Assembly (NCBI GenBank): GCA_964438815.1
Contig: CAYTKW010000007.1
Span: 19,025-51,024 of the forward strand
Origin: an uncultured Bacteroidota bacterium
Lineage (GTDB): Bacteria; Bacteroidota; Ignavibacteria; Kryptoniales; Kryptoniaceae
Length of the DNA: 32,000 bases
Reading direction: 5' to 3'
Positions within the stretch are counted from its first letter, which is position 1. Every line of letters starts with the position of its first letter. The translations under genes and the position numbers were made by a program. Shown here in pieces: positions 8,223-25,662 of the stretch. The notes beneath the pieces are model-generated. The model searched no databases, was not told the origin of the DNA, and worked only from the letters and a program-made list of their open reading frames with translations.

Positions 8223-9455
8223 ATGGAAGCAATTGGTGAAAGAGTCGTTAAGTTCTTTATCCCAGAAATAGGCGATGTTTACTTTAACCTTCAAAAGTAT
8301 TCAACAACGATTTCGGAGGAGCATAAATTTATTTATTACTTTGATGCAGAGGGAAGGTTTATGGGCGGGTTTTTCAATGGGATAAGCTATAGGCGTGGAC
8401 TTGATAATAGATTGATGAAAAAGTTTTTTGATGAAGATAAATTCAAGGTCAAAGTTTTCATCAATGACGCTGAAAAAAGAAAAGTGATTGAAAATGTGTT
8501 GAATAGAGTTTTTAAAATAAAAATGGCGTTGAATTTTAACAGAAACGCTCACGACATCATTGTAAGACTTGATGATATTTTGAGATGGAATTATGAAGAG
8601 CTTGAAAAAGATGGAATTAAGTTTTTTACAGTTTATAAACCGATAAGTATACTGCCACCGGACCAATATTTCTCACTTGTGTTGCAACCTGCTGAAGGTT
8701 GTTCTTGGAACAGATGCACATTTTGTAGTTTTTATCAAGATAGAAGGTTTAGAGTTAAATCTCCTGCGGAATTTCTTGAGCATGTTAAAAAAGTCAAGGA
8801 ATTCTTTGGAAAGTCAATTGGCTTGAGAAAGTCAATTTTTCTTGGTGATGCGAATGCTTTAATAATACCGCAGAAAAGATTGATTGAATTGATCAAAATT
8901 GTTCATGAGGAATTCCCGATAACGCAAAAGAGAGATGAATTTGATTATGTTTTTGATGGGATTTACTCATTTCTTGACATTTTCGGGGCTGAGAAAAAAA
9001 GTTTAGGTGAGTATTCCGAGTTAAAAGATTGGCAGGTTAAGAGAATTTACATTGGACTTGAAACTGGGGATGAGGAGTTATTTGGATATTTAAATAAACC
9101 TGGTTCACCCGAAGAATGTGTTGAGGTTGTCAGCACTATTAAAGAAGCTGGCATAAATGTTGGAGTGATAGTTCTTGCGGGCGCTGGCGGGATAAAGTTT
9201 TATGATAGGCATGTTCAAAAGACAATTGAGACAATTTTAAAAATGCCACTTGGCAGTGGCGATATCGTTTATATTTCTCCACTTGTCCTTGATAATGCTT
9301 ATGAATATGTGAAAATCATGGACGACATTGGGTCAAGGACTTTAGATAAATTTGAAGTTTCAAGACAAATACAAGAGATCAAAGATGAGCTTAAAGAACT
9401 TAACAAATTTGGATCTAAAGTTACACTTTATGATATACAAGAGTTCATTTACTAA
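8223..9455 (+). CDS. Radical SAM superfamily protein with non-canonical CX4CX2C cluster motif; function unknown
   Basis: 410 aa. AEGCSWNRCTFCSFY (Cys codons within 8700-8726) is followed by TIM-barrel-like elements FLGDANAL, IYIGLETGDEELF and GINVGVIVLAGAGG. The N-terminal ~150 aa contain no motif I recognise. Confidence 0.75.
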   Translation: MEAIGERVVKFFIPEIGDVYFNLQKYSTTISEEHKFIYYFDAEGRFMGGFFNGISYRRGLDNRLMKKFFDEDKFKVKVFINDAEKRKVIENVLNRVFKIKMALNFNRNAHDIIVRLDDILRWNYEELEKDGIKFFTVYKPISILPPDQYFSLVLQPAEGCSWNRCTFCSFYQDRRFRVKSPAEFLEHVKKVKEFFGKSIGLRKSIFLGDANALIIPQKRLIELIKIVHEEFPITQKRDEFDYVFDGIYSFLDIFGAEKKSLGEYSELKDWQVKRIYIGLETGDEELFGYLNKPGSPEECVEVVSTIKEAGINVGVIVLAGAGGIKFYDRHVQKTIETILKMPLGSGDIVYISPLVLDNAYEYVKIMDDIGSRTLDKFEVSRQIQEIKDELKELNKFGSKVTLYDIQEFIY

Positions 9456-9472
9456 AAAAGATAAATTTAGAA

Positions 9473-11011
9473 ATGGACTTTGATAAAGTTCGTGGCAATG
9501 TTGGCTTCTTTCTCGGTTTATTTTGCTTTTTCATAATACTTCTTTTACCAACACCTCAATCTTTCATTGAATATGCAAAGGCAAGAATTGGGGTTGACGA
9601 AATTAATTCAAATGTTTTAAATCTTTCATACAGTATGAAAATTACCTTTGCCCTTATGGTTTTGATGATAATATGGTGGATAACAGAGGCTGTTTCAATT
9701 CCAGTGACATCTCTTTTGCCTGGAGTTATTTTGCCGATGTTCCATGTTTATGGGTTTCAATCTGGAAGATTAGTTCCTCTTGATGGTAAAAGCGTGTTTT
9801 TGAACTACGCCAACCCAATAATTTTTCTTTTCCTTGCTGGTTTTATGATTTCTGGAGCGATGCAAAAGTGGGGGCTTGATAAAAGAATTGCGCTTTGGAT
9901 TCTCACTCGCGGAAATGTGGCTAAAAGCCCCGGGAAAGTTTTGTTTGGTTTAATCATTGCAACTGCATTTATTTCAATGTGGGTTTCAAATACTGCGACA
10001 ACTGCTATGATGTTGCCAATAGCCCTTGGGATATTAAATAAGCTTAATGTTGATTATAGCTCAAAGTATGCAAAGGCTGTGATGCTTGGTGTAGCTTATG
10101 CAGCTTCAATCGGGGGAATTGGAACGATAATTGGAACACCCCCAAATGGCATTGCAGTTTCTATACTTGAAAAGGAAGGAATTGCACATATAAATTTTTT
10201 AAAATGGATGATGTTTGGAGTTCCATTTGTAATTTTAGCTTTGCCAATTTTATGGGTTGTTTTAAAAGTTGTGTTTAAATTTGAATTGAAATTCGGGGAT
10301 GAAATTAAAGAGATACTTTTAAATGAGAAAAGTAAACTTGGAAAATTAACTCGTGCTGAGAAATTAACACTTACTGGATTTTCTATCACTGTCTTCTTAT
10401 GGATTACAAATCCATTTTGGAATTTGATACCTTTTGTTGGACAAAAGCTTGAATGGTTTGATGAGTATTTGATAGCTGTTTTTGGATGTATACTTTTGTT
10501 TATTTTACCCGTTGACTTTTCAAAAAGAAAATTTGTTCTTGATTGGAGTGATTCAAAGTATGTTGACTGGGGAACTTTGCTTTTGTTTGGCGGTGGGATA
10601 GCTCTTTCCGATGTTTTATTCAAAACAGGTCTTGCAAATGTGATGGCTAATGAATTTATAAAACTTTTTGGACACCCTTCGCCTGTATTACTTGTGTTTA
10701 TAGTTGTGATTTTTATGGAACTTTTAACTGAGGTGACATCAAACACAGCTGTGACATCAATGATGGTTCCAATTTTGATTTCAATTTCCTCAGGGCTTGG
10801 CATTAATTCTATCATTTTAGTTTTGCCAGCTACCATTGGAGCTTCAATGGCTTTTATGCTTCCTGTTGCAACTCCTCCAAATGCTCTTGTATATGGGACA
10901 AGATTTGTGACTTTGTTTGATATGTTAAAAGCAGGTTTTGTTCTTGATATAACTACTTGGATTTACATCGGCATTTTTTTCTTTTTAGTGTTTAACATAA
11001 TTGGATTTTGA
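9473..11011 (+). CDS. DASS / SLC13-family sodium-coupled anion (di/tricarboxylate or sulfate) symporter
   Basis: 512 aa and polytopic. It has two hairpin-tip SNT motifs (VSNTATTAMMLP and TSNTAVTSMMVP), each followed by a PPN motif (GTPPNGIA, ATPPNALV), as in VcINDY-type DASS transporters. It starts 17 bp after the radical-SAM stop. Confidence 0.9.
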   Translation: MDFDKVRGNVGFFLGLFCFFIILLLPTPQSFIEYAKARIGVDEINSNVLNLSYSMKITFALMVLMIIWWITEAVSIPVTSLLPGVILPMFHVYGFQSGRLVPLDGKSVFLNYANPIIFLFLAGFMISGAMQKWGLDKRIALWILTRGNVAKSPGKVLFGLIIATAFISMWVSNTATTAMMLPIALGILNKLNVDYSSKYAKAVMLGVAYAASIGGIGTIIGTPPNGIAVSILEKEGIAHINFLKWMMFGVPFVILALPILWVVLKVVFKFELKFGDEIKEILLNEKSKLGKLTRAEKLTLTGFSITVFLWITNPFWNLIPFVGQKLEWFDEYLIAVFGCILLFILPVDFSKRKFVLDWSDSKYVDWGTLLLFGGGIALSDVLFKTGLANVMANEFIKLFGHPSPVLLVFIVVIFMELLTEVTSNTAVTSMMVPILISISSGLGINSIILVLPATIGASMAFMLPVATPPNALVYGTRFVTLFDMLKAGFVLDITTWIYIGIFFFLVFNIIGF

Positions 11012-13258
11012 TTTATGAATTTTATATGCGATAAGTCCAGCAATTGTGATTGATACGACGCCTGATATAAAAATCAAATCTGCAGGAAGCCTTAACCATT
11101 CAATTAATTTCATTAGTTCATTTGACGCAAATTCCGAACTTCTCGCAAAGCGATATCCTTTCTCAATCACTGCTTTTAATTGTAAAATTCCACCTGGGAA
11201 TAATGTAAGAATTGACATCAAAGCAAGACCGACATTGAGCGTCCAGAAAGATGTTTTGACATACTTTTCAATCCTATCCCAATTTTTCTCGTCAAGAATT
11301 TGTCTCATTCCAAAAACTATTAGGGAGATAGCAAGCATTCCGAAGACGCCCATCATCGCAGTGTGACCATGGTTTGAGGTAAGCATTGTTCCGACTTCAA
11401 AATAACTGATTATTGGCAAATTTATTAAAAATCCGAAAATCCCAGCTCCAACAAAATTCCAGAACCCAACTGACATCAGGAAGTAAAATGTCCATTTATG
11501 TGGTATGTTAACTTTTTGCCCACATATATCACACTTTGTTGATGTTAGTTTTATAAAGTCCCATGCCTCAAGCGTTAGCAAAGTAAGTGGGACAACCTCC
11601 ATAGCTGAAAACATAGCACCAAGTGCCATCGTTATATTAGTTTGACCAGTCCAATACCAATGGTGACCTGTCCCGACTATTCCACTTCCAAGATAAAGTA
11701 AAGCATCAAGATATACAACCCTTGCAGCTGTCTTTGGGGAAATTATATCAAGTTTATAGAAGATTATAGCAACTATTGAAGTTAAAAACACTTCAAAAAA
11801 TCCCTCAACCCATAGATGAATTATCCAAAACCTCCAGGTATCAACTACTGTATAATGAGAACTGTGATTGAAAAATAGCGCTGGTGCGTAGAAGATTGGA
11901 ATAGCTATAGCGGAATATATAAATAGCGAAACAACCTCTTTAGTGTCGTTATCTTTGAGCCCTGGTCTGATGAGATTAATAAGTATGAATAACCAGATGA
12001 GAAGTGAAATTGCAAGCAAAATTTGCCATCCTCTTCCAAGGTCAAGATATTCCCATCCTTGATGACCAAATAAAAACCATAATTTACCCATTAAATTATT
12101 AACACCGAGATATTCACCCAACAAACTTCCTACAACAGTTATGAATAGGAGGGAAAATACGATATTTATCAATCTGACAAATTTTTCGTAATTAATTTTT
12201 TCAGCAAATGTTGATGCTATAAAAATTGCTCCACCAACATAAGCTATTGCAACCCAGAAAATAGCGAGCTGAATATGCCAAGTCCTTAAGATATTGCTTG
12301 GTAAAATGTTAAAAATTTTAAATCCGTAAAAACTTGTCGGGTCAGCCCTGTAGTGGGCAACTGCTCCACCAGCAAAAACTTGCAGGAGAAACAGAATTAA
12401 GGATACGACGAAAAATTTTAATGTTGAAGATTGAATTTGATTTGGTTCACCTGGAATTAAAGTTGGATGTGCATGTCCATCTTTACCTTTCCATCCGAGA
12501 TAGTCAAATCTACCAAATACGAAAAGTGCAAGGGCAAGCATTCCAAGAAGGGCGATGAGACTTAACGCGCTCCACATATATGCATCAAGCGTTGGCTTAT
12601 TTTCAAGCTCTGGGAAATAGGGGAAATTATTTGTATATGAATAATTTTTTCCAGGTCTATTTGCAACGGAAGCCCACGCTGTCCAGCTGAAGAAGGCAAC
12701 AAGGGAGCGTAATTCATCTTTATCTTGAATTAAGTTTTCTTTTAACCCAAAATTTAAACTTGGAACACCAAAATAATTTTCCCATGTCTTTATTTGCTTT
12801 GTAAAAGATAAAACTTCTGCATCTGTGTAAACTAAAATTCTGGTTTCCGAATTATATCTATTTGTTTTTAAAAGTTTGGCAACTTTATTCTTTATTTTTT
12901 CTTTATCTTCGTTATTAAGTTCTGAAAAATTTTTCCCGTATTCGGCTTTTGCCATAAATTCAATTGCATCATTATAAAGGTTATACAGGTATTCAGCTGA
13001 AAAATCCGGACCAAGGTATGCTCCATGACCCCATATCGTCCCATTTTCGTGCAAGCCATATTTCAAAAAGACTTCTTGTCCTTTTAATATGTCATCTTTT
13101 GTTATAATTGTATTTCCTTTTTCATCAATGATTTTCTCGGGGATAGGGGGTGCATCTGTATAAGATTTTACTGAAATAAATATCAAGACGCTAAAGCATA
13201 CTATAAATGTGATGATAGCGATATGCTTTAAAAGTGATTGATTTATTTGCTTTTCCAT
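10985..13258 (-). CDS. norB: Quinol-dependent nitric-oxide reductase (qNOR, single-subunit NorB/NorZ type)
   Basis: 757 aa. N-terminal TM helix plus periplasmic cytochrome-c-like remnant domain (GHGAYLGPDFSAEYL). Haem-copper oxidase core with HLWVEGFFEVF and GTGHHWYWTGQ. Its 3' end overlaps the convergent DASS gene by 27 bp. Confidence 0.92.
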   Translation of the reverse strand: MEKQINQSLLKHIAIITFIVCFSVLIFISVKSYTDAPPIPEKIIDEKGNTIITKDDILKGQEVFLKYGLHENGTIWGHGAYLGPDFSAEYLYNLYNDAIEFMAKAEYGKNFSELNNEDKEKIKNKVAKLLKTNRYNSETRILVYTDAEVLSFTKQIKTWENYFGVPSLNFGLKENLIQDKDELRSLVAFFSWTAWASVANRPGKNYSYTNNFPYFPELENKPTLDAYMWSALSLIALLGMLALALFVFGRFDYLGWKGKDGHAHPTLIPGEPNQIQSSTLKFFVVSLILFLLQVFAGGAVAHYRADPTSFYGFKIFNILPSNILRTWHIQLAIFWVAIAYVGGAIFIASTFAEKINYEKFVRLINIVFSLLFITVVGSLLGEYLGVNNLMGKLWFLFGHQGWEYLDLGRGWQILLAISLLIWLFILINLIRPGLKDNDTKEVVSLFIYSAIAIPIFYAPALFFNHSSHYTVVDTWRFWIIHLWVEGFFEVFLTSIVAIIFYKLDIISPKTAARVVYLDALLYLGSGIVGTGHHWYWTGQTNITMALGAMFSAMEVVPLTLLTLEAWDFIKLTSTKCDICGQKVNIPHKWTFYFLMSVGFWNFVGAGIFGFLINLPIISYFEVGTMLTSNHGHTAMMGVFGMLAISLIVFGMRQILDEKNWDRIEKYVKTSFWTLNVGLALMSILTLFPGGILQLKAVIEKGYRFARSSEFASNELMKLIEWLRLPADLIFISGVVSITIAGLIAYKIHKSKSNYVKH

Positions 13259-13322
13259 GTTAAACTGCGAATTTTGTTTTTGTTTTCAAATTAAAATTTA
13301 ATTTGATCTGCGGGTGAAAACA

Positions 13323-13336
13323 TTGACTTAAATCAG
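13323..13336. promoter_or_regulatory. Candidate CRP/FNR-family (Fnr/Dnr/NnrR-type) box TTGAC-TTAA-ATCAG
   Basis: 8 of 10 matches to TTGAT-N4-ATCAA. On the qNOR strand, a -10-like TAAATT (13300-13295) lies exactly 22 nt downstream of the box. That is the spacing of class II FNR promoters, with the box centred near -41.5. Confidence 0.35.
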
Positions 13337-13422
13337 GGTTTGGCAAAAGATGATGTGAAACTTGACTTTTTAATTTTGTTTTATTATATTTAGATTGAGT
13401 CTAAATAAAATATAAGCATGCG

Positions 13423-14343
13423 ATGAAGCTACTTCTTAGAACTATCTTGGCGGTGCTTGTGTTTGAGGTATCTGTTTCGCAAGGTGAAACCTATTATCTT
13501 ATGGGGACATATGCTTATATTGAGTTTCCAAGCAAAGAATGGAATCTCCTTGTATATAAATACCTAAGGGAGATTGAGTCTAAACTTTCAGATTTCATTG
13601 ACACATCTGAAATTTCTCTAATCAACTCAAGTGCTGGAAAAAATTTTGTAAAGGTCTCGGATATCACGATTGAGGTCATAAGGAAGTCAATTGAAGTATC
13701 TGAAAAAACATTTGGATATTTTGATGTAACGGTTGGGGCTTTGACGATTAATTCTAAAAGGTTGGGGAAAATAGATGAAGATTCAGCTCACAAGCTTGTC
13801 AATTTCAAAGATATAATCATCAGTGGTGATAGTGTTATGCTGGCAAAGGAAAGTATGGCGATTGACCTTGGTGGAATAGGTAAGGGGTTTGCGATTGAAA
13901 AAGTTTATCAGCGTTTTAGGACTGCGCGTGGCTTTGTTTCAATAGGTGGAGATATGAAAGTATGGGGGCATAAAAGGACGCTCGCAATTAAAGACCCAAT
14001 AAACGGTGGCTCTCTGGTTCAGATGGTGAATTCAAAAGATGTCAGCATTTCAACATCTGGAAATTACATAAAAAAACACATTCAAACGGAGGACGATGAA
14101 ATTATTCAAGTTACAGTTGCCCATGAAGATGCAACTTATGCTGATGCTTATGCGACTGCGCTTTTTGCAATGTCAAGAAGTGCACGAGAAAAATTTTTAA
14201 AGGAAAATAACCTTGCCGTTCTAATTTTGTATAAAGATGGTTCTATATATATGAGCGATAAATTTAAAGATTTCTTTGCAGTGATAATTTTCAGGGGTGG
14301 CGAAAAATATATTTCAAAAACAAAAAAGGAGAAGAAAAAATGA
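13423..14343 (+). CDS. apbE: FAD:protein FMN transferase (ApbE/Ftp family), secreted
   Basis: 306 aa. N-terminal signal peptide MKLLLRTILAVLVFEVSVSQG. ApbE motifs FGYFDVTVGAL, AIDLGGIGKGFAIEK, SIGGDMKVWG, LAIKDP and ADAYATALFAM. The segment that usually carries HxxDPxTG looks shortened. Confidence 0.85.
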   Translation: MKLLLRTILAVLVFEVSVSQGETYYLMGTYAYIEFPSKEWNLLVYKYLREIESKLSDFIDTSEISLINSSAGKNFVKVSDITIEVIRKSIEVSEKTFGYFDVTVGALTINSKRLGKIDEDSAHKLVNFKDIIISGDSVMLAKESMAIDLGGIGKGFAIEKVYQRFRTARGFVSIGGDMKVWGHKRTLAIKDPINGGSLVQMVNSKDVSISTSGNYIKKHIQTEDDEIIQVTVAHEDATYADAYATALFAMSRSAREKFLKENNLAVLILYKDGSIYMSDKFKDFFAVIIFRGGEKYISKTKKEKKK

Positions 14344-15881
14344 AGGGCTCAATAATCTTGAAAACATTTGCAATCATAAGCGCATTGTTAACATTATTTA
14401 ACTTAAACCTTATTTATGCTCAACAAGATAAAGGGCGAATAATTGGGCTCGTTATTGATGCTAAAACTGGCGAAGGACTTCCAGCAGTTAATGTAGTCGT
14501 AAAGGGAACACATTACAGCGCAACAACTGATTTTGATGGCAAATTTGAGATAAGAGATGTTAACCCAGGAATATATACGCTTGAAATTTTAATTATTGGT
14601 TATAAGAAGGTGACGATTACTGATGTTAAAGTTCGTCCTGGCGAGACCACAGATTTAAAGACTATAAAAATTGAAGAAATATCTGCAGGACTTGAACGGG
14701 AAATTGAAGCGTTAAAGGAAGAAATAAGACGGCTTCGCCTTGAGGTTGCTATGCCAGAAATAGAACTTAAGTCATACTTTGGACTTGGTCCGGCTGCGTC
14801 AAAAATTTACTATACCCCAAGAGGTCTTTCAATAGCAGGATATGGTGAGATAACATATGAAAATTATCTTGATAATTCTAAGACAGACCGCGGTGATGTG
14901 TTAAGGTTTATACCATATATCGGATATAAGTTCACAGAAAAAATAATTGTTAATTCAGAACTTGAAATTGAACATGCAGGAATTGGAAATGTTGGCAATA
15001 GGCAACCGGAAGTTTATGTTGAATTTTTATATGTTGAATTTTTAAACCCGAGGTTTAATTTGAGAACTGGTTTATTCCTTATCCCTGTAAGCAGTATGAA
15101 TGAATATCACGAGCCACCAGTCTTTTTTGCAACCTTAAGACCCGATGTTGAAAGATTTATAATACCAACTGTGTGGCGCGAAATTGGGGTTATGGCTTAT
15201 GGTGAGATAGCTCAAGGTTTGTCTTACAAGATTGCGTTGGTGAATGGTTTGAGAACTGATTTAATAGGTGATTGGATTAGCTCGGGAAGGCAAAGAGGAG
15301 CGAATGTTAATTTTGATAAATTTGCTGGAATAGTCAGAATTGATTTTAATGTAGTTAGAGGATTGAATTTAGGTGGCTCGGTTTATTATGGCAAAGGTAG
15401 CGATAAAAGTGGTGCAAGCGAAAAAGGAAGTGAGGAAGCAAAGTTTACTTTAATTACAGTTGAAGGTGAATACCAGTTTAAGAGTTTATTTTTGAAAGGG
15501 CTTTTTGCTTCGGGTAGAGCTGATGGGAATAATAGTTATAAATCCAAAGCTGGGCGAGCAAGTAAAGTCTATGGCTGGTATGTTGAAACAGGATATAATC
15601 TTATTCCATTGATTTCTCCTGAATCGCTCGTTTCGCTTTCGCCATTTGTAAGATACGAAAGGTATAATCTTAATCAAGGAGTTTTGACAGGAAATAATGA
15701 CTTATCAAAAGATAGGAGTGTGTTAACATTTGGACTTGATTTTAAGCCACATCCTCAAGTTGTAATCAAAGTAGATTATCAATTGCGTGATACGAAGTCA
15801 GGTTTTCCTGCAGGAAAGGGAACTGGCAAGGATGAATGGAAAATTAACCAGTTTAATCTTGGCATCGGATTTATTTTTTAA
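14340..15881 (+). CDS. Outer-membrane porin-like beta-barrel with an N-terminal carboxypeptidase-regulatory-like domain and a coiled-coil linker
   Basis: 513 aa. Signal peptide ending IYAQQ. CarboxypepD_reg-like segment GRIIGLVIDAKTGEGLPAVNVVVKGTHYSATTDFDGKFEIRDVNPGIYTLE. Heptad stretch LEREIEALKEEIRRLRLEV. Long amphipathic beta-strand region ending in the OMP signature ...NLGIGFIF. Its ATG overlaps the apbE stop (ATGA). Confidence 0.8.
   Translation: MKGSIILKTFAIISALLTLFNLNLIYAQQDKGRIIGLVIDAKTGEGLPAVNVVVKGTHYSATTDFDGKFEIRDVNPGIYTLEILIIGYKKVTITDVKVRPGETTDLKTIKIEEISAGLEREIEALKEEIRRLRLEVAMPEIELKSYFGLGPAASKIYYTPRGLSIAGYGEITYENYLDNSKTDRGDVLRFIPYIGYKFTEKIIVNSELEIEHAGIGNVGNRQPEVYVEFLYVEFLNPRFNLRTGLFLIPVSSMNEYHEPPVFFATLRPDVERFIIPTVWREIGVMAYGEIAQGLSYKIALVNGLRTDLIGDWISSGRQRGANVNFDKFAGIVRIDFNVVRGLNLGGSVYYGKGSDKSGASEKGSEEAKFTLITVEGEYQFKSLFLKGLFASGRADGNNSYKSKAGRASKVYGWYVETGYNLIPLISPESLVSLSPFVRYERYNLNQGVLTGNNDLSKDRSVLTFGLDFKPHPQVVIKVDYQLRDTKSGFPAGKGTGKDEWKINQFNLGIGFIF
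15015..15044 (+). repeat. Perfect in-frame 15-bp tandem duplication (TATGTTGAATTTTTA x2) inside the porin gene
   Basis: Read directly: 15015-15029 equals 15030-15044. It encodes YVEFL-YVEFL. Confidence 0.95.
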
Positions 15882-15907
15882 TATCTTTAAAAGCCATTGA
15901 GGTTCTC

Positions 15908-15935
15908 CGCCCGGGTTCTCCCGGGCGTGTTTTTG
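15908..15935 (+). terminator. Strong Rho-independent terminator after the porin gene
   Basis: Stem CGCCCGGG (15908-15915), loop TTCT, stem CCCGGGCG (15920-15927), then TGTTTTT. Confidence 0.85.
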
Positions 15936-16000
15936 AAATTAATATCCAAATGGATTAACCTTTGGTATAACGATTTAACGAAAAATTTAAAAAATTGATA

Positions 16001-16519
16001 ATGGCGCAATTAAAGGTTTTGACATTATTGCTCTCTTTGTTAATTCAAATTCAACAACCAGAAAAAGTTTTAAATGAAATTTATCTTGGTGCAAAAATTG
16101 AAGTTAAAAACATCATACTTTCAGATTCCCAACTTGAAAGAGTAAAAAAATTGTCGGGTGTGAAACTTGAAAGTAAGCTTATTACATTCTACCTTGTTAA
16201 GTATAATTCAAATATCAAATTCTATGGTTATGTTGACATTCACATTGTAAGAACTCATCCAGAGGTAGTTCTATATGTGCTTAACGAGAAAGGGGAAATT
16301 GAGTTAATTAAAATACTTTCGTTTAAGGAGCCACCTGAGTATATGGCTGATGAGAATTGGTTAAATTACCTGAAAGGGAAAACGCTTGAAAAAGATCTTT
16401 TAAGGTTGAGAAGGGATGTTCCGAACATGACAGGTGCGACTTTAACTGCGAAAGCGATAACTGATAACGCGAGGAAAGTTATAGCGCTGTGGGAAATAAT
16501 TTACGGTGATAAAAAATGA
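16001..16519 (+). CDS. Secreted FMN_bind-domain protein carrying an ApbE flavinylation site
   Basis: The track ORF starts at TTG 15995; I prefer ATG 16001. Hydrophobic N-terminus LKVLTLLLSLLIQI. C-terminal DVPNMTGATLTAKAI (16415-16447) matches the D-x3-[ST]-G-A-[TS] covalent-FMN motif of NqrC, RnfG and NosR. The candidate acceptor Thr codon is ACT at 16439-16441. Confidence 0.8.
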   Translation: MAQLKVLTLLLSLLIQIQQPEKVLNEIYLGAKIEVKNIILSDSQLERVKKLSGVKLESKLITFYLVKYNSNIKFYGYVDIHIVRTHPEVVLYVLNEKGEIELIKILSFKEPPEYMADENWLNYLKGKTLEKDLLRLRRDVPNMTGATLTAKAITDNARKVIALWEIIYGDKK

Positions 16520-17466
16520 GATTTTTCTGGACAGGGAATTTTAAAAGCTTAAAGCCAATCCGTATTGCAATTTTGCTTTTCATTTTATTTGTTTTTCTGT
16601 TCTGGGTTGGAAATTTTGTTTATTTCGGTTTTGAGTTTGGTTATTCAATTGATAAAATAGGAAATTACTTCTTTGGCGACTCTGAATTTCCCGTAGAAGT
16701 TTCAGTATCGCAGCTTGCTGAAAATTTGCATGTGAATTTATTTGTTTTTTCTCTTTTGTTTTTATGCATTTCCGCTTTGCTTATTTATACAGTTTTTTCA
16801 GAGGAAGTTAAAATTTTCTTGATTTTATCTTTTGCTTTAATAGGATTTTTATATTCAGTTTCTGATTTTTTGGTTTTTTATCTTGGGCGGGATTTTGCTT
16901 TTTTGAAACTTGTTTTATTTTTCATTTTTCAAATTACATTATTCTTGACGACGCTTGCAATTTTATTTAAGGGCTCAAATGGTAAGAGAAACAATGGCTT
17001 TTCAAAGTCTCTTGCGATTATAATTTTTATTTTCGCTTTTATTAATCTTCTCTTTGTCGTTTTTAACATCATTTTATTCGCAAGCAAAATCGGGTTCAAG
17101 GTTTCAGATGTCATTAATTATCATCTTGGCAATCCGCAAAAATTTATAAAACCGAAATCAATTCATGGTCTCATTGAAGTTTCGTATTTTCACTTTTTGC
17201 CAATGGCGTTGTATTTGACAACGATTTCTCATTTTATTTTTCTTGTAAGCGATAAGTTTAATATAGCGATAACTGTTTCTCTTTTTCTGAGCGCTTTGCT
17301 TGATAATATATCTGGTATTTTTATAGTTTTGTTTTGGTCCGGTTTTGCGATTGTTAAGTTATTTTCTTTCTATCTTTTGCAAATTTTACTTTTGCTTTGC
17401 TCTGTAATTTTAATTTATAAATTGCTGGCTTTGAAATTTAACTTCCCCAATCGCGGGCGTATCTGA
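16516..17466 (+). CDS. Integral membrane protein with about 8 TM helices as two 4-TM repeats; function unknown
   Basis: 316 aa. Its ATG overlaps the upstream stop (ATGA). Each half starts with a TM helix, then a loop of the form NY-x2-G-x8/9-S-[VI]-x2-L-x-E followed by a His-bearing helix (NYFFGD...[14 protein letters not shown] and NYHLGN...[15 protein letters not shown]). I recognise no known family by eye. Confidence 0.7.
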
Positions 17467-24596: not shown

Positions 24597-25045
24597 TTCT
24601 TTTCTCCATTTGATAGTGTTAATTCAAGAACTTCATCTTTCGTTGGACTGTCGCTTGATGAGATAACTTTTTGAACTGATAGCATCTCGCTTAAAATCAC
24701 TTCATCAATTTTCAAAGAAGTTTTGCTTGACATCACTTCTATGCCAATTAAAATAAAAAGCAATAAAACCAACGCAAATACAATTTTGTGCGCTAAACCC
24801 GCCACATAAGCCCAGAATTCAGCTTTACTTCTCACTTCACTTAACTGCGCTTGTATTCGGGTGAAAAGATATGGCGAAACCTCAATTGTATTTTCTTTAA
24901 GTGATTCTCTTACCAATTCATGAACTTTTACAAGATATGAACATTCTTCGCATGATTTCAGATGTTCTTCAACAAGTGCGATGTTGTTTTTTAATTCGCC
25001 GTCAATATATTCGGAGACGAGTTTTTTTATTTTGCTGTGTCTCAT
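24593..25045 (-). CDS. Anti-sigma factor (zf-HC2 type), single-pass membrane protein
   Basis: 150 aa. N-terminal H-x3-C-x2-C motif (HLKSCEEC). One TM helix, IVFALVLLLFILIGIEVM. 4-bp overlap with the ECF sigma gene. Confidence 0.78.
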   Translation of the reverse strand: MRHSKIKKLVSEYIDGELKNNIALVEEHLKSCEECSYLVKVHELVRESLKENTIEVSPYLFTRIQAQLSEVRSKAEFWAYVAGLAHKIVFALVLLLFILIGIEVMSSKTSLKIDEVILSEMLSVQKVISSSDSPTKDEVLELTLSNGEKK

Positions 25046-25623
25046 TTTAAAATTCCTCTATATTCTTTTAGATACTCTGCGAGAAGTTTTCTTGCTCTAA
25101 AAATTCTTGATTTCACAGTTCCAATACTTATTTTCAAAATTTTCGCTATCTCTTCGTATGGTAAATCTTCAAAGTCTCGCAAAATTATTACGGTTTTATA
25201 TTCAGGCGGAAGCTTGGACATCGCCTTTTCAATTATTTCTCTCATTTCACTTCGTTCAACATTTTTTTCAACCGGCGAATAAGAAGGTTCAGCTTTTGGA
25301 TTTTGGCTCAAGACATCAAATAGGGAGTAAGCCCTTGAGCGTTGTCTTTTCCTTATTTCATCAATACAGATGTTCACGGTTATTCTATAAATCCAAGTGT
25401 AAGGAGCTGAACTAAATTTGTATTCTTTTAAAGACTCAAAAACTCTCAAAAAAACCTCCTGCGTTAAATCTTCAACTATATCTGAATCGCCGATAATTTT
25501 AAAAATTAAGTTAGCAACCCTATTCTGATACTTTTTTACTATTACCTCAAATGCCTTCTTATCTCCATCCTTTGCTTTTTTGACGATTTCAACCTCGTCA
25601 AATGTTTCATTTTGTTGCTTCAT
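25042..25623 (-). CDS. ECF-type RNA polymerase sigma-70 family factor
   Basis: 193 aa. Region 2: DLTQEVFLRVFESL and YTWIYRITVNICIDEIRKR. Region 4 helix-turn-helix: LPYEEIAKILKISIGTVKSRIFRARKLL. Confidence 0.92.
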   Translation of the reverse strand: MKQQNETFDEVEIVKKAKDGDKKAFEVIVKKYQNRVANLIFKIIGDSDIVEDLTQEVFLRVFESLKEYKFSSAPYTWIYRITVNICIDEIRKRQRSRAYSLFDVLSQNPKAEPSYSPVEKNVERSEMREIIEKAMSKLPPEYKTVIILRDFEDLPYEEIAKILKISIGTVKSRIFRARKLLAEYLKEYRGILK

Positions 25624-25637
25624 ATTTCTGAAATTAT

Positions 25638-25662
25638 GACGATTGGATTTTATCTAAGTTCC
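25638..25662 (-). promoter_or_regulatory. Candidate ECF-sigma-dependent (autoregulatory) promoter GGAAC-N16-CGTC
   Basis: The minus strand reads GGGAACTTAGATAAAATCCAATCGTCATAATTTCAGAAATATG. GGAAC lies at 25662-25658, followed by a 16-nt spacer and CGTC at 25641-25638. The sigma-gene ATG follows 14 nt later, which implies a very short leader. Confidence 0.4.

Follow-up and report, generated by a model that had tools for sequence, protein, structure and literature searches.

A dedicated porin and a presumed haem-b membrane protein in an ApbE-centred flavin module of Kryptoniota, with a possible role in reductive iron acquisition

Described flavinylated systems and the present locus

ApbE-dependent flavinylation is a widespread route for electrons out of the bacterial cytoplasm, and thousands of genomes carry flavinylation genes to which no membrane conduit has been assigned (PMC8238504). 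In this study, a flavinylation locus has been analysed in a 32,000-nucleotide stretch of contig CAYTKW010000007.1 from an uncultured member of the Kryptoniaceae, the whole of which is called the window. Four genes encode there an ApbE-family flavin mononucleotide (FMN) transferase, an outer-membrane porin, a small secreted FMN_bind protein and an inner-membrane protein with eight transmembrane (TM) helices, which belongs to the Pfam family PF27139 (Aq_1264_TM). This quartet is read here as a self-contained redox module of the envelope which is regulated by metal and serves to acquire iron by reduction, and the probability of this reading is put at about one in two. The module belongs to the ApbE-flavinylated extracytosolic electron-transfer systems, its membrane component lies outside all the described classes, and none of the classes described in the sources cited includes a dedicated 16-strand porin. 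The theme of flavinylation and iron is already established; the PF27139 membrane component and the dedicated porin are the new part.

Flavinylation has repeatedly been tied to iron reduction and assimilation, and the flavinylated systems of the PepSY-like/DUF2271, MsrQ-like and P19-linked types have been linked to iron assimilation (PMC8238504). Precedent for His-ligated cytochromes in flavinylation or iron settings is provided by FezC, DUF4405 and FoxB/PepSY; DUF4405 and FezC have been shown to be such cytochromes, FezC through homodimerisation (PMC11334425). The present locus resembles the PepSY-like/DUF2271, VciB and FoxB systems (PMC8238504, PMC11334425) in combining an ApbE gene, a small secreted flavinylated protein (predicted to be so here) and an inner-membrane protein with conserved TM His residues, haem b binding being known in those systems and predicted from the sequence in this one. 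All these systems have links to Fur regulation, TonB receptors and ferrous-iron uptake, and periplasmic Fe(III) reduction has been proposed as their task. However, the module has no match to PF03929, PF16357 or PF10029 and its flavin carrier is an FMN_bind protein instead of DUF2271. Its membrane protein is built as a repeat of four TM helices, one of which carries both His, and has no Foldseek match to the FoxB structure 7ABW; the outer-membrane partner in the module is a 16-strand porin in place of a TonB-dependent receptor. The DUF4405 and FezC proteins also share with the module the presence of small polytopic membrane proteins beside apbE or iron transport genes; the haem site of FezC is built from conserved His across the homodimer interface (PMC11334425), and the single 4-TM relatives of Aq_1264_TM would work likewise. 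On the other hand, Aq_1264_TM has no sequence similarity to DUF4405 even at an expectation value (E) <=10, it possesses four or eight helices instead of six, and its His layout is another one. Moreover, haem binding is experimental for DUF4405 and FezC (pyridine haemochrome assay, PMC11334425), whereas for Aq_1264_TM it is a prediction.

The flavoprotein of the module shares with RnfG and NqrC the FMN_bind fold family, the [ST]GAT threonine as a target of ApbE and a periplasmic domain which would dock on a polytopic membrane partner encoded next to it. The match is weak, however, and the module protein has no N-terminal anchor but is secreted in soluble form; rnfA-E and nqrA-F are all missing, and the membrane partner is unrelated to RnfD or NqrB. 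In the DsbD/DUF3570 system (PMC8238504), apbE likewise lies immediately beside a gene for a beta-rich envelope protein of about 420 amino acids (aa). DUF3570 is itself flavinylated at two conserved [ST]GA[ST] sites, whereas the lone SGAS of the window porin (aa 357) is unique to this protein, and one of the 119 other homologues has one unrelated site. As this SGAS is not conserved in the 119 other homologues, and as no PF12094 match was obtained, the porin was rejected as a DUF3570-like flavinylation substrate; DsbD, thioredoxin and DUF4266 genes are also missing from the module. In the P19/FTR1 (FtrABCD-type) uptake system, for which a redox step has been proposed, an FMN_bind gene lies beside P19 and FTR1 in some lineages (PMC8238504), as also in the Nitrobium and NC10 loci considered below, but P19 and FTR1 are absent from the window and from most module loci, and the module has a membrane partner and a porin of its own and does not depend on their presence for its occurrence. 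Among the porins, OprP/OprO and OmpM1 have the same 16-strand fold, and the N-terminal periplasmic domain and coiled coil of the window protein are like the layout of OmpM1. In contrast to OprP/OprO, the conserved residues of the window porin are Glu and His with no arginine ladder, and the protein is genomically dedicated to a flavin redox pair; its N-terminal domain is CarboxypepD_reg and not SLH as in OmpM1, and is restricted to the window's sub-clade.

Recurrence, components and regulation of the module

The gene neighbourhoods were collected from look-ups of porin homologues, from a genome scan with an alignment of the 8-TM protein and from a metagenome scan with an alignment of 11 FMN_bind sequences, and the resulting set comprises 102 loci in 49 lineage groups. 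Carriers of the module are found in Kryptoniota (to judge by its closest matches, the phylum of the window), Aquificota (Thermocrinis, Aquifex, Sulfurihydrogenibium and Persephonella), Nitrospirota (Candidatus (Ca.) Nitrobium), NC10, Elusimicrobiota, Deltaproteobacteria, Methylococcus, Binatia and Helicobacteraceae. The core of the module is the FMN_bind gene with the Aq_1264_TM gene directly downstream of it, an order which is kept in 40 of 42 lineage groups. A porin homologue lies within 2.6 kb of the FMN_bind gene in 25 of 29 lineage groups and ApbE within 3.5 kb in 14 of 24, while ApbE is fused to the membrane unit in proteins P0143, P0184, P0216 and P0225 and at locus L081 (600 aa). The quartet has been found together in dozens of unrelated lineages and is therefore beyond chance, and the module travels as a unit across phyla. 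The genes outside the quartet are mostly unrelated housekeeping genes, and no reductase or repair enzyme was found as a conserved partner in the neighbourhood survey. An earlier sequence-only reading of this DNA had described a compact, uncharacterised ApbE-centred periplasmic flavin module and had proposed to survey the quartet in other genomes; the recurrence in about 49 lineage groups bears this description out and adds that the module is conserved.

The same reading had asked whether the adjacency of the quartet to a gene for a quinol-dependent nitric oxide reductase (qNOR) recurs, and had offered a link to nitric oxide (NO) or denitrification. Neither held in the survey. A qNOR homologue adjoins the module only in L007-L009 and in the window, which are of one organism, and in none of the other lineage groups (about 48), and the closest Kryptoniota relatives carry other genes upstream of the module. 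Because this adjacency is restricted to a single organism, the NO link is not supported; a functional tie to qNOR was rejected, and qNOR is an unrelated neighbour with an incidental position.

The assignment of the 8-TM protein to PF27139 comes from the precomputed Pfam annotation of the 100%-identical protein P0001 and of all 21 close homologues, and the Pfam copy used for our own searches is older than this family. With that copy, the whole protein gave no Pfam or NCBIfam match at E<=0.1, and its halves and the single-unit relatives gave no Pfam family at E<=10. The family is rare, as a profile search of 1.84 billion representatives retrieved merely 217 relatives at E<=0.001. In the AlphaFold2 (AF2) model of the protein (predicted local distance difference test, pLDDT, 83.7), eight TM helices are grouped 4+4 and accompanied by two short helices on the periplasmic side. 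The protein is an internal duplication of a 4-TM unit; single 4-TM relatives of 160-190 aa match both half-profiles, and some genomes, for example Persephonella, encode two separate halves. No match was found in the PDB, by sequence or by fold with Foldseek, FoxB 7ABW included, and the protein matches none of NapH-like PF12801, MsrQ-like PF01794, PepSY-like PF03929/PF16357, DsbD PF02683, NqrB/RnfD-like and DUF4405. By these comparisons, it is placed outside every described flavinylation-associated membrane class. The membrane partner and the module are mentioned neither in the main text of PMC8238504 and PMC11334425 nor in what a term search of PMC12052999 returns, and a literature search with the locus tags aq_1262, aq_1263 and aq_1264 gave zero papers and no described function for PF27139. 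Hence, the earlier statement that the membrane partner is not of a known flavinylated-system class stands, and the structure prediction and fold search which it had proposed gave eight TM helices and no characterised fold.

The further remark that this protein has no obvious cofactor motif was wrong. The residues H72 (TM2), H226 and H239 (TM6, 13 apart), K191, Y202, G205 and K281 are invariant in 27 diverse full-length members, and Glu69 and Glu221 in the TM helices are invariant or nearly so. Both His, 13 apart on one helix (His-x12-His), are present in 84 of 98 aligned half-length sequences, made up of 96 database proteins and the two halves of the window protein. Single-unit relatives show the pattern S-H-x-H...(12)...H, and the N-terminal half of the split and fused forms retains only the periplasm-side His. 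The positive-inside rule would place H239 close to the cytoplasmic end of its helix, and H72 and H226 at a distance of about 9-11 residues from the periplasmic ends of TM2 and TM6. The spacing of this His triad is presumed to be that typical of transmembrane b-haem ligands, and Aq_1264_TM is presumed to be a haem-b transmembrane electron carrier.

A further residue of TM2, Cys84 (16765-16767), is invariant within the Kryptoniota clade and not in the wider Aq_1264_TM family. It directly precedes the residue which corresponds to His239 of the other repeat and might for this reason be a lineage-specific replacement ligand.

The ApbE protein matches PF02424 with 140.8 bits (cut-off 25.6) over profile positions 1-265 of 266, a full-length match by the curated criterion, and its N-terminus MKLLLRTILAVLVFEVSVSQG, judged from its residues, is Sec-signal-like with no lipobox Cys. 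It is predicted to attach FMN to Thr149 of the FMN_bind protein, whose PF04205 score exceeds the gathering cut-off of 22. The open reading frame (ORF) of the latter opens at 15995, and gene callers choose the ATG at 16001, which gives 172 aa. The motif DVPNMTGATLT is encoded at 16415-16447, with the codon of the predicted flavinylated Thr149 at 16439-16441. In 19 orthologues from at least eight phylum-level lineages, G147, A148 and T149 show no variation, with S or T at position 146, which upholds the textbook flavinylation site recognised earlier in this small secreted protein; the motifs H83-x-V-R-T and F110-x-E-P-x-E-Y are conserved in the same orthologues. Since many orthologues match PF04205 only faintly or weakly, the FMN_bind proteins of the module form a divergent subfamily, and their likeness to RnfG is distant (TIGR01947, E 0.031; RnfG in the PDB, E 0.75). 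AXA-type signal-peptidase sites in the homologues indicate that the mature protein is a soluble periplasmic single domain.

The porin consists of a signal peptide, a CarboxypepD_reg beta-sandwich (aa 32-111), a coiled coil (aa 116-136) and a 16-strand barrel (aa 162-513). Its AF2 model (pLDDT 88.5) shows the 16 strands, and Foldseek matched it to OmpT (E 5.7e-14, template-modelling score 0.74) and also to OmpU, OmpC, OprP, OprO and OmpM1 at E of about 1e-13. Homologues are 50-60% identical across phyla, an unusually high conservation for a porin. The invariant residues E207, E209, E211 and H212 alternate along one strand. The invariant NEYHEP motif (N254-E255-x-H257-E258-P259) and R267, P268 and E271 are found in the long loop which connects modelled barrel strands five and six, the motif falling between the strands modelled at 240-247 and 280-291; this position we take to be that of the constriction loop L3 of OmpF-type porins. 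From these invariant charged residues, the eyelet of the porin may be suggested to be cation- or metal-selective.

The CarboxypepD_reg domain together with the coiled coil (14433-14750, porin aa 32-136) is present only in the window's sub-clade (P0022-P0025), and the other porin homologues are of about 430-455 aa without the beta-sandwich. The layout of the window porin is reminiscent of OmpM1, a porin with an SLH stalk, and of the N-terminal extension present in SusC-type receptors.

All four products of the module are membrane proteins or predicted to be exported, and the ATGA stop/start overlaps at 14340-14343 and 16516-16519 join the genes in two coupled pairs. Between the pairs lies a hairpin (CGCCCGGG-TTCT-CCCGGGCG) of 8 GC pairs with a 4-nt loop and a TGTTTTT tail, the sole 8-GC-pair terminator-like site of the region; a GC hairpin with a T-run, of differing sequence, occupies the same position in most other Kryptoniota loci listed. 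Because the position of the hairpin is conserved and no conserved promoter is found downstream of it in the Kryptoniota loci, the two pairs are probably one operon with an internal attenuating or stabilising hairpin rather than two independent units. The ORFs, the Pfam matches and direct reading confirm every sequence statement made earlier on the four same-strand genes, their two ATGA-coupled pairs, the hairpin and the flavinylation site.

The sequence GCCATTGAGGT at 15894-15906, between the porin stop and the hairpin, is kept in most Kryptoniota loci (L010, L012, L033, L038 and L041) although the adjoining hairpin sequences diverge. It could be a processing or binding site or a part of a larger RNA structure.

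Wherever the region upstream of apbE is sequenced in the Kryptoniota loci, it contains the promoter TTGACT-N17-TATATT irrespective of the upstream gene, and the palindrome TTTAGATT(A/G)A(A/G)TCTAAA follows it directly. The operator TTAGATT-N-AATCTAA has a single match in the window. In 20 Kryptoniota loci, each of about 20 kb, it is present exactly once, upstream of apbE by 17-35 nt in every case. This 7-1-7 palindrome is presumed to be the binding site of a Fur-family-like repressor. A sister 7-1-7 motif, TGAGATT-N-AATCTCA, is present in Aquificota module promoters and also lies 16 nt upstream of feoA-feoB in Sulfurihydrogenibium (L024). Canonical Fur boxes were scored against GATAATGATAATCATTATC as matches out of 19. 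Boxes of 15-17/19 overlap the module promoters in six lineages (17/19 in L029; 16/19 each in L096, L026 and L003; 15/19 each in L081 and L030), and boxes of at least 14/19 are more frequent in module promoters (7 of 36) than in control promoters of the same loci (4 of 121; Fisher p=0.003). The search of the leader and intergenic regions against Rfam gave no riboswitch or known RNA, the weak PrrF and snoRNA matches being far below the gathering scores.

At 25643-25657 of the window, the operator has a weaker copy with 2 mismatches, TTGGATTTTATCTAA, about 20 nt upstream of an extracytoplasmic function (ECF) sigma factor gene (25042-25623, minus strand), which heads a cluster of sigma, anti-sigma-like and resistance-nodulation-division (RND) adaptor genes. 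This copy could be due to chance or mark a second member of the regulon; in the Elusimicrobiota locus L029, the Feo genes are closely followed by a homologous ECF sigma gene with a zf-HC2 anti-sigma gene.

Iron genes accompany the module in several lineages. In Ca. Nitrobium, the order porin-FMN_bind-TM is followed by FTR1, P19 and an FtrD-like gene. The Elusimicrobiota locus reads, on one strand, TonB receptor-Fur-HMBD-porin-FMN_bind-...-FeoB-DtxR_C/FeoA, and the NC10 locus reads Fe-type ABC transporter-P19-TonB receptor-...-ApbE-porin-FMN_bind-TM, followed by a cation diffusion facilitator (CDF) transporter. In Sulfurihydrogenibium, FeoAB lies 1.6 kb from the module, and in the protein P0254 the 4-TM unit is fused to a DtxR C-terminal domain (Fe_dep_repr_C) and a FeoA domain. 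Of the functions offered by the sequence-only reading, metal handling across the envelope is the one favoured by the iron neighbours, the fusion and the operators.

Two small secreted beta-rich proteins with no Pfam match are encoded between the module and the feo genes, at 6518-7231 of L024 (minus strand, 237 aa) and at 8905-9540 of L029 (211 aa). The 237-aa protein ends outer-membrane-like in ...YRFF, and its gene, situated between feoAB and the module, has a TGAGATT-type sister operator of its own upstream. The 211-aa gene, between FMN_bind and feoB in Elusimicrobiota, was considered as a relative of Aq_1264_TM and rejected; its product looks small, beta-rich and secreted.

Proposed mechanism and rival explanations

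In the proposed mechanism, ApbE would attach FMN to Thr149 of the secreted RnfG-like FMN_bind protein. The Aq_1264_TM protein would bind haem b, with one haem near the periplasmic face held between His72 (TM2) and His226 (TM6), and Lys131 and Lys281 may serve the haem propionates. His239 would form a second, cytoplasm-side haem site, which may be bis-His in the homodimeric 4-TM relatives. Through these haems, the membrane protein would pass electrons of the quinol pool, most simply from menaquinol, to the flavoprotein, which would in turn reduce an Fe(III) species, or possibly another metal cation, entering through the dedicated cation-selective porin. Import of the Fe(II) formed would be the task of permeases of the Feo or FTR1 type, whose genes lie close to the module in some lineages and presumably elsewhere in the genome of this organism, and a Fur-family-like repressor on the 7-1-7 palindrome would silence the module when the cell is metal replete. 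Each of these steps has a precedent in the flavinylation literature.

Several observations weigh against this reading. Neither the window nor the 10-kb flanks of the Kryptoniota loci contain any iron-transport gene. Because iron or metal neighbours are found in only 4-5 of the 49 lineage groups, none of them Kryptoniota, the link to iron rests on the neighbours, the fusion and the operators jointly. The HMBD, PCYCGC and CDF neighbours would fit copper or another metal as well. A canonical Fur box was sought in the window and rejected, with 7 matches against 5.1 expected, hence not above chance, and none at the module promoters. As for the membrane protein, the fused 8-TM form carries three and not four invariant His, its haem binding is a prediction from the sequence, and its AF2 model has no structural counterpart in the PDB, FoxB included.

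The Aq_1264_TM protein could instead supply flavin, exporting FAD or FMN to the periplasm for ApbE while the flavoprotein obtains its electrons from components encoded elsewhere. Small 4-TM homodimers can indeed be transporters, as in the small multidrug resistance (SMR) type. Several independent relatives have the 4-TM or 8-TM unit fused to ApbE and not to FMN_bind, and the delivery of FAD to periplasmic ApbE in Gram-negative bacteria has been raised as an open point (PMC12052999). Fusion to ApbE is, however, also seen for other module components, such as ApbE-DUF2271 (PMC8238504). The tightest coupling of the membrane protein is to FMN_bind (40 of 42 groups) and not to ApbE (14 of 24), and two His 13 apart, one per leaflet, together with conserved membrane Lys make a classic di-haem rather than a transporter pattern, so that flavin export is considered unlikely. 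A role of the 8-TM protein as a permease for Fe2+ or another cation along His/Glu-lined helices, with the flavoprotein acting as a periplasmic reductase with another donor, would agree with the conservation of His72, His226, His239 and Glu69/Glu221 in the TM helices, with the fusion of one family member to a FeoA domain, such domains being partners of iron permeases, and with the lack of a separate iron permease near most loci, the window included. Yet the invariant Lys inside TM4 and TM8 (K131, K281) would be unfavourable for a cation path, the flavoprotein would be left without an electron source, and Aq_1264_TM resembles no known transporter family or fold; we find a permease improbable.

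The same architecture may act on another metal or in the other direction, as a reductase of cupric or other metal ions or as a path from a periplasmic substrate to the quinone pool. HMBD, PCYCGC, CDF and PccH neighbours occur in some loci, and the Glu/His residues of the porin would be compatible with several divalent cations. Reduction of Cu(II) is also known from ferric reductases of the STEAP/FRE type. On the other hand, the specific partners which recur belong to iron systems (Feo, FTR1/P19, Fur, DtxR-FeoA and Fur boxes), and covalently bound FMN, with its low potential, is better fitted to donate electrons than to take them up from Fe(II); such a variant is given a small chance. Defence against NO or oxidative stress, or support of qNOR, for example by reduction of periplasmic oxidants or by MsrPQ-like envelope repair, is very unlikely. 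The divergent qNOR gene, with 164 bp between the start codons, would be in its favour, and so would an OsmC gene which neighbours the module in L030; the 7-1-7 palindrome, by comparison of its half-sites, could equally be that of a PerR-type peroxide regulator. But in no other lineage, not even in the closest Kryptoniota relatives, does the module adjoin a qNOR gene, its promoter and operator are kept whichever gene lies upstream, and no reductase or repair enzyme is a conserved partner. Moreover, the sister operator precedes feoAB, and canonical Fur boxes are found in other lineages.

Reductive iron acquisition is therefore retained as the preferred reading, and a wider form of it may be put forward with less than even confidence. 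Aq_1264_TM may represent an unrecognised class of transmembrane cytochromes, occurring as a 4-TM homodimer, a heterodimer or a fused 8-TM protein, which together with the flavinylated RnfG-like protein and a metal-selective porin would form a Fur-regulated, envelope-spanning system of reductive iron uptake. This system would be common to deep-branching and thermophilic bacteria (Aquificota, Kryptoniota, Nitrospirota, NC10 and others), among which it would probably have spread, operator included, by horizontal transfer. If true, the module would stand as the sixth or seventh class of conduit. It would be the first to have a dedicated porin of the general type and the first to be centred on phyla for which hardly any genetics exists (Kryptoniota, Aquificota, Nitrospirota and NC10). 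A testable function would be available for two uncharacterised families, PF27139 and, by association, PF27085. The module also suggests how microaerophilic thermophiles obtain iron, and its palindrome is a candidate Fur-family operator for Aquificota and Kryptoniota which could serve to map their metal regulons.

Coordinates and minor observations

Table 1. Features of the flavin module and its divergent neighbour, with positions in the window
Feature	Position	Strand	Description	Basis
qNOR gene	10985-13258	divergent, upstream of apbE	NorB_cytochrome_c-like + COX1	Pfam
Promoter	13362-13390	+	-35 TTGACT 13362-13367, 17-nt spacer, -10 TATATT 13385-13390	consensus scan 10/12
Palindromic operator TTTAGATTGAGTCTAAA	13389-13405		7-1-7, TTAGATT-N-AATCTAA; presumed Fur-family-like repressor site; overlaps -10 and +1	
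apbE	13423-14343	+	predicted secreted FAD:protein FMN transferase, 306 aa	PF02424, E 7.6e-41
Porin gene	14340-15881	+	513 aa, N-terminal CarboxypepD_reg + C-terminal beta-barrel	Pfam, AF2
GC hairpin + T-run	15908-15935	+	between porin and FMN_bind genes; intrinsic-terminator-like attenuator or mRNA 3' stabiliser	
FMN_bind gene	15995-16519	+	secreted RnfG/NqrC-like, 172-174 aa	PF04205, 29.5 bits
8-TM inner-membrane protein gene	16516-17466	+	316 aa	PF27139 (Aq_1264_TM)
Invariant His codons	16729-16731; 17191-17193; 17230-17232		His72; His226; His239	

In the 164-bp divergent region, the sequence TTGAC-TTAA-ATCAG (13323-13336), noticed by eye about 70 nt upstream of the qNOR start, resembles a box of the FNR/CRP family (DNR/NnrR-type, TTGAT-N4-ATCAA) and probably belongs to the qNOR promoter and not to the apbE operon. 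In the Helicobacteraceae locus L028, where no porin homologue was detected, a Phenol_MetA_deg-type barrel adjoins apbE. A fifth gene of about 560-670 aa, with a match to PF27085 ('Aq_1262') and to no other Pfam family, is inserted between porin and FMN_bind in five Aquificota lineage groups (L005 at 9272-11275, L048, L049, L051, L071, L075 and L077); it is an uncharacterised accessory which the window does not carry. In Persephonella (L005, 4320-5508), the operon of FMN_bind and the split TM halves opens with two further genes of 326 aa and 64 aa, which have no Pfam match, and a perfect TGAGATTAAATCTCA operator precedes them.

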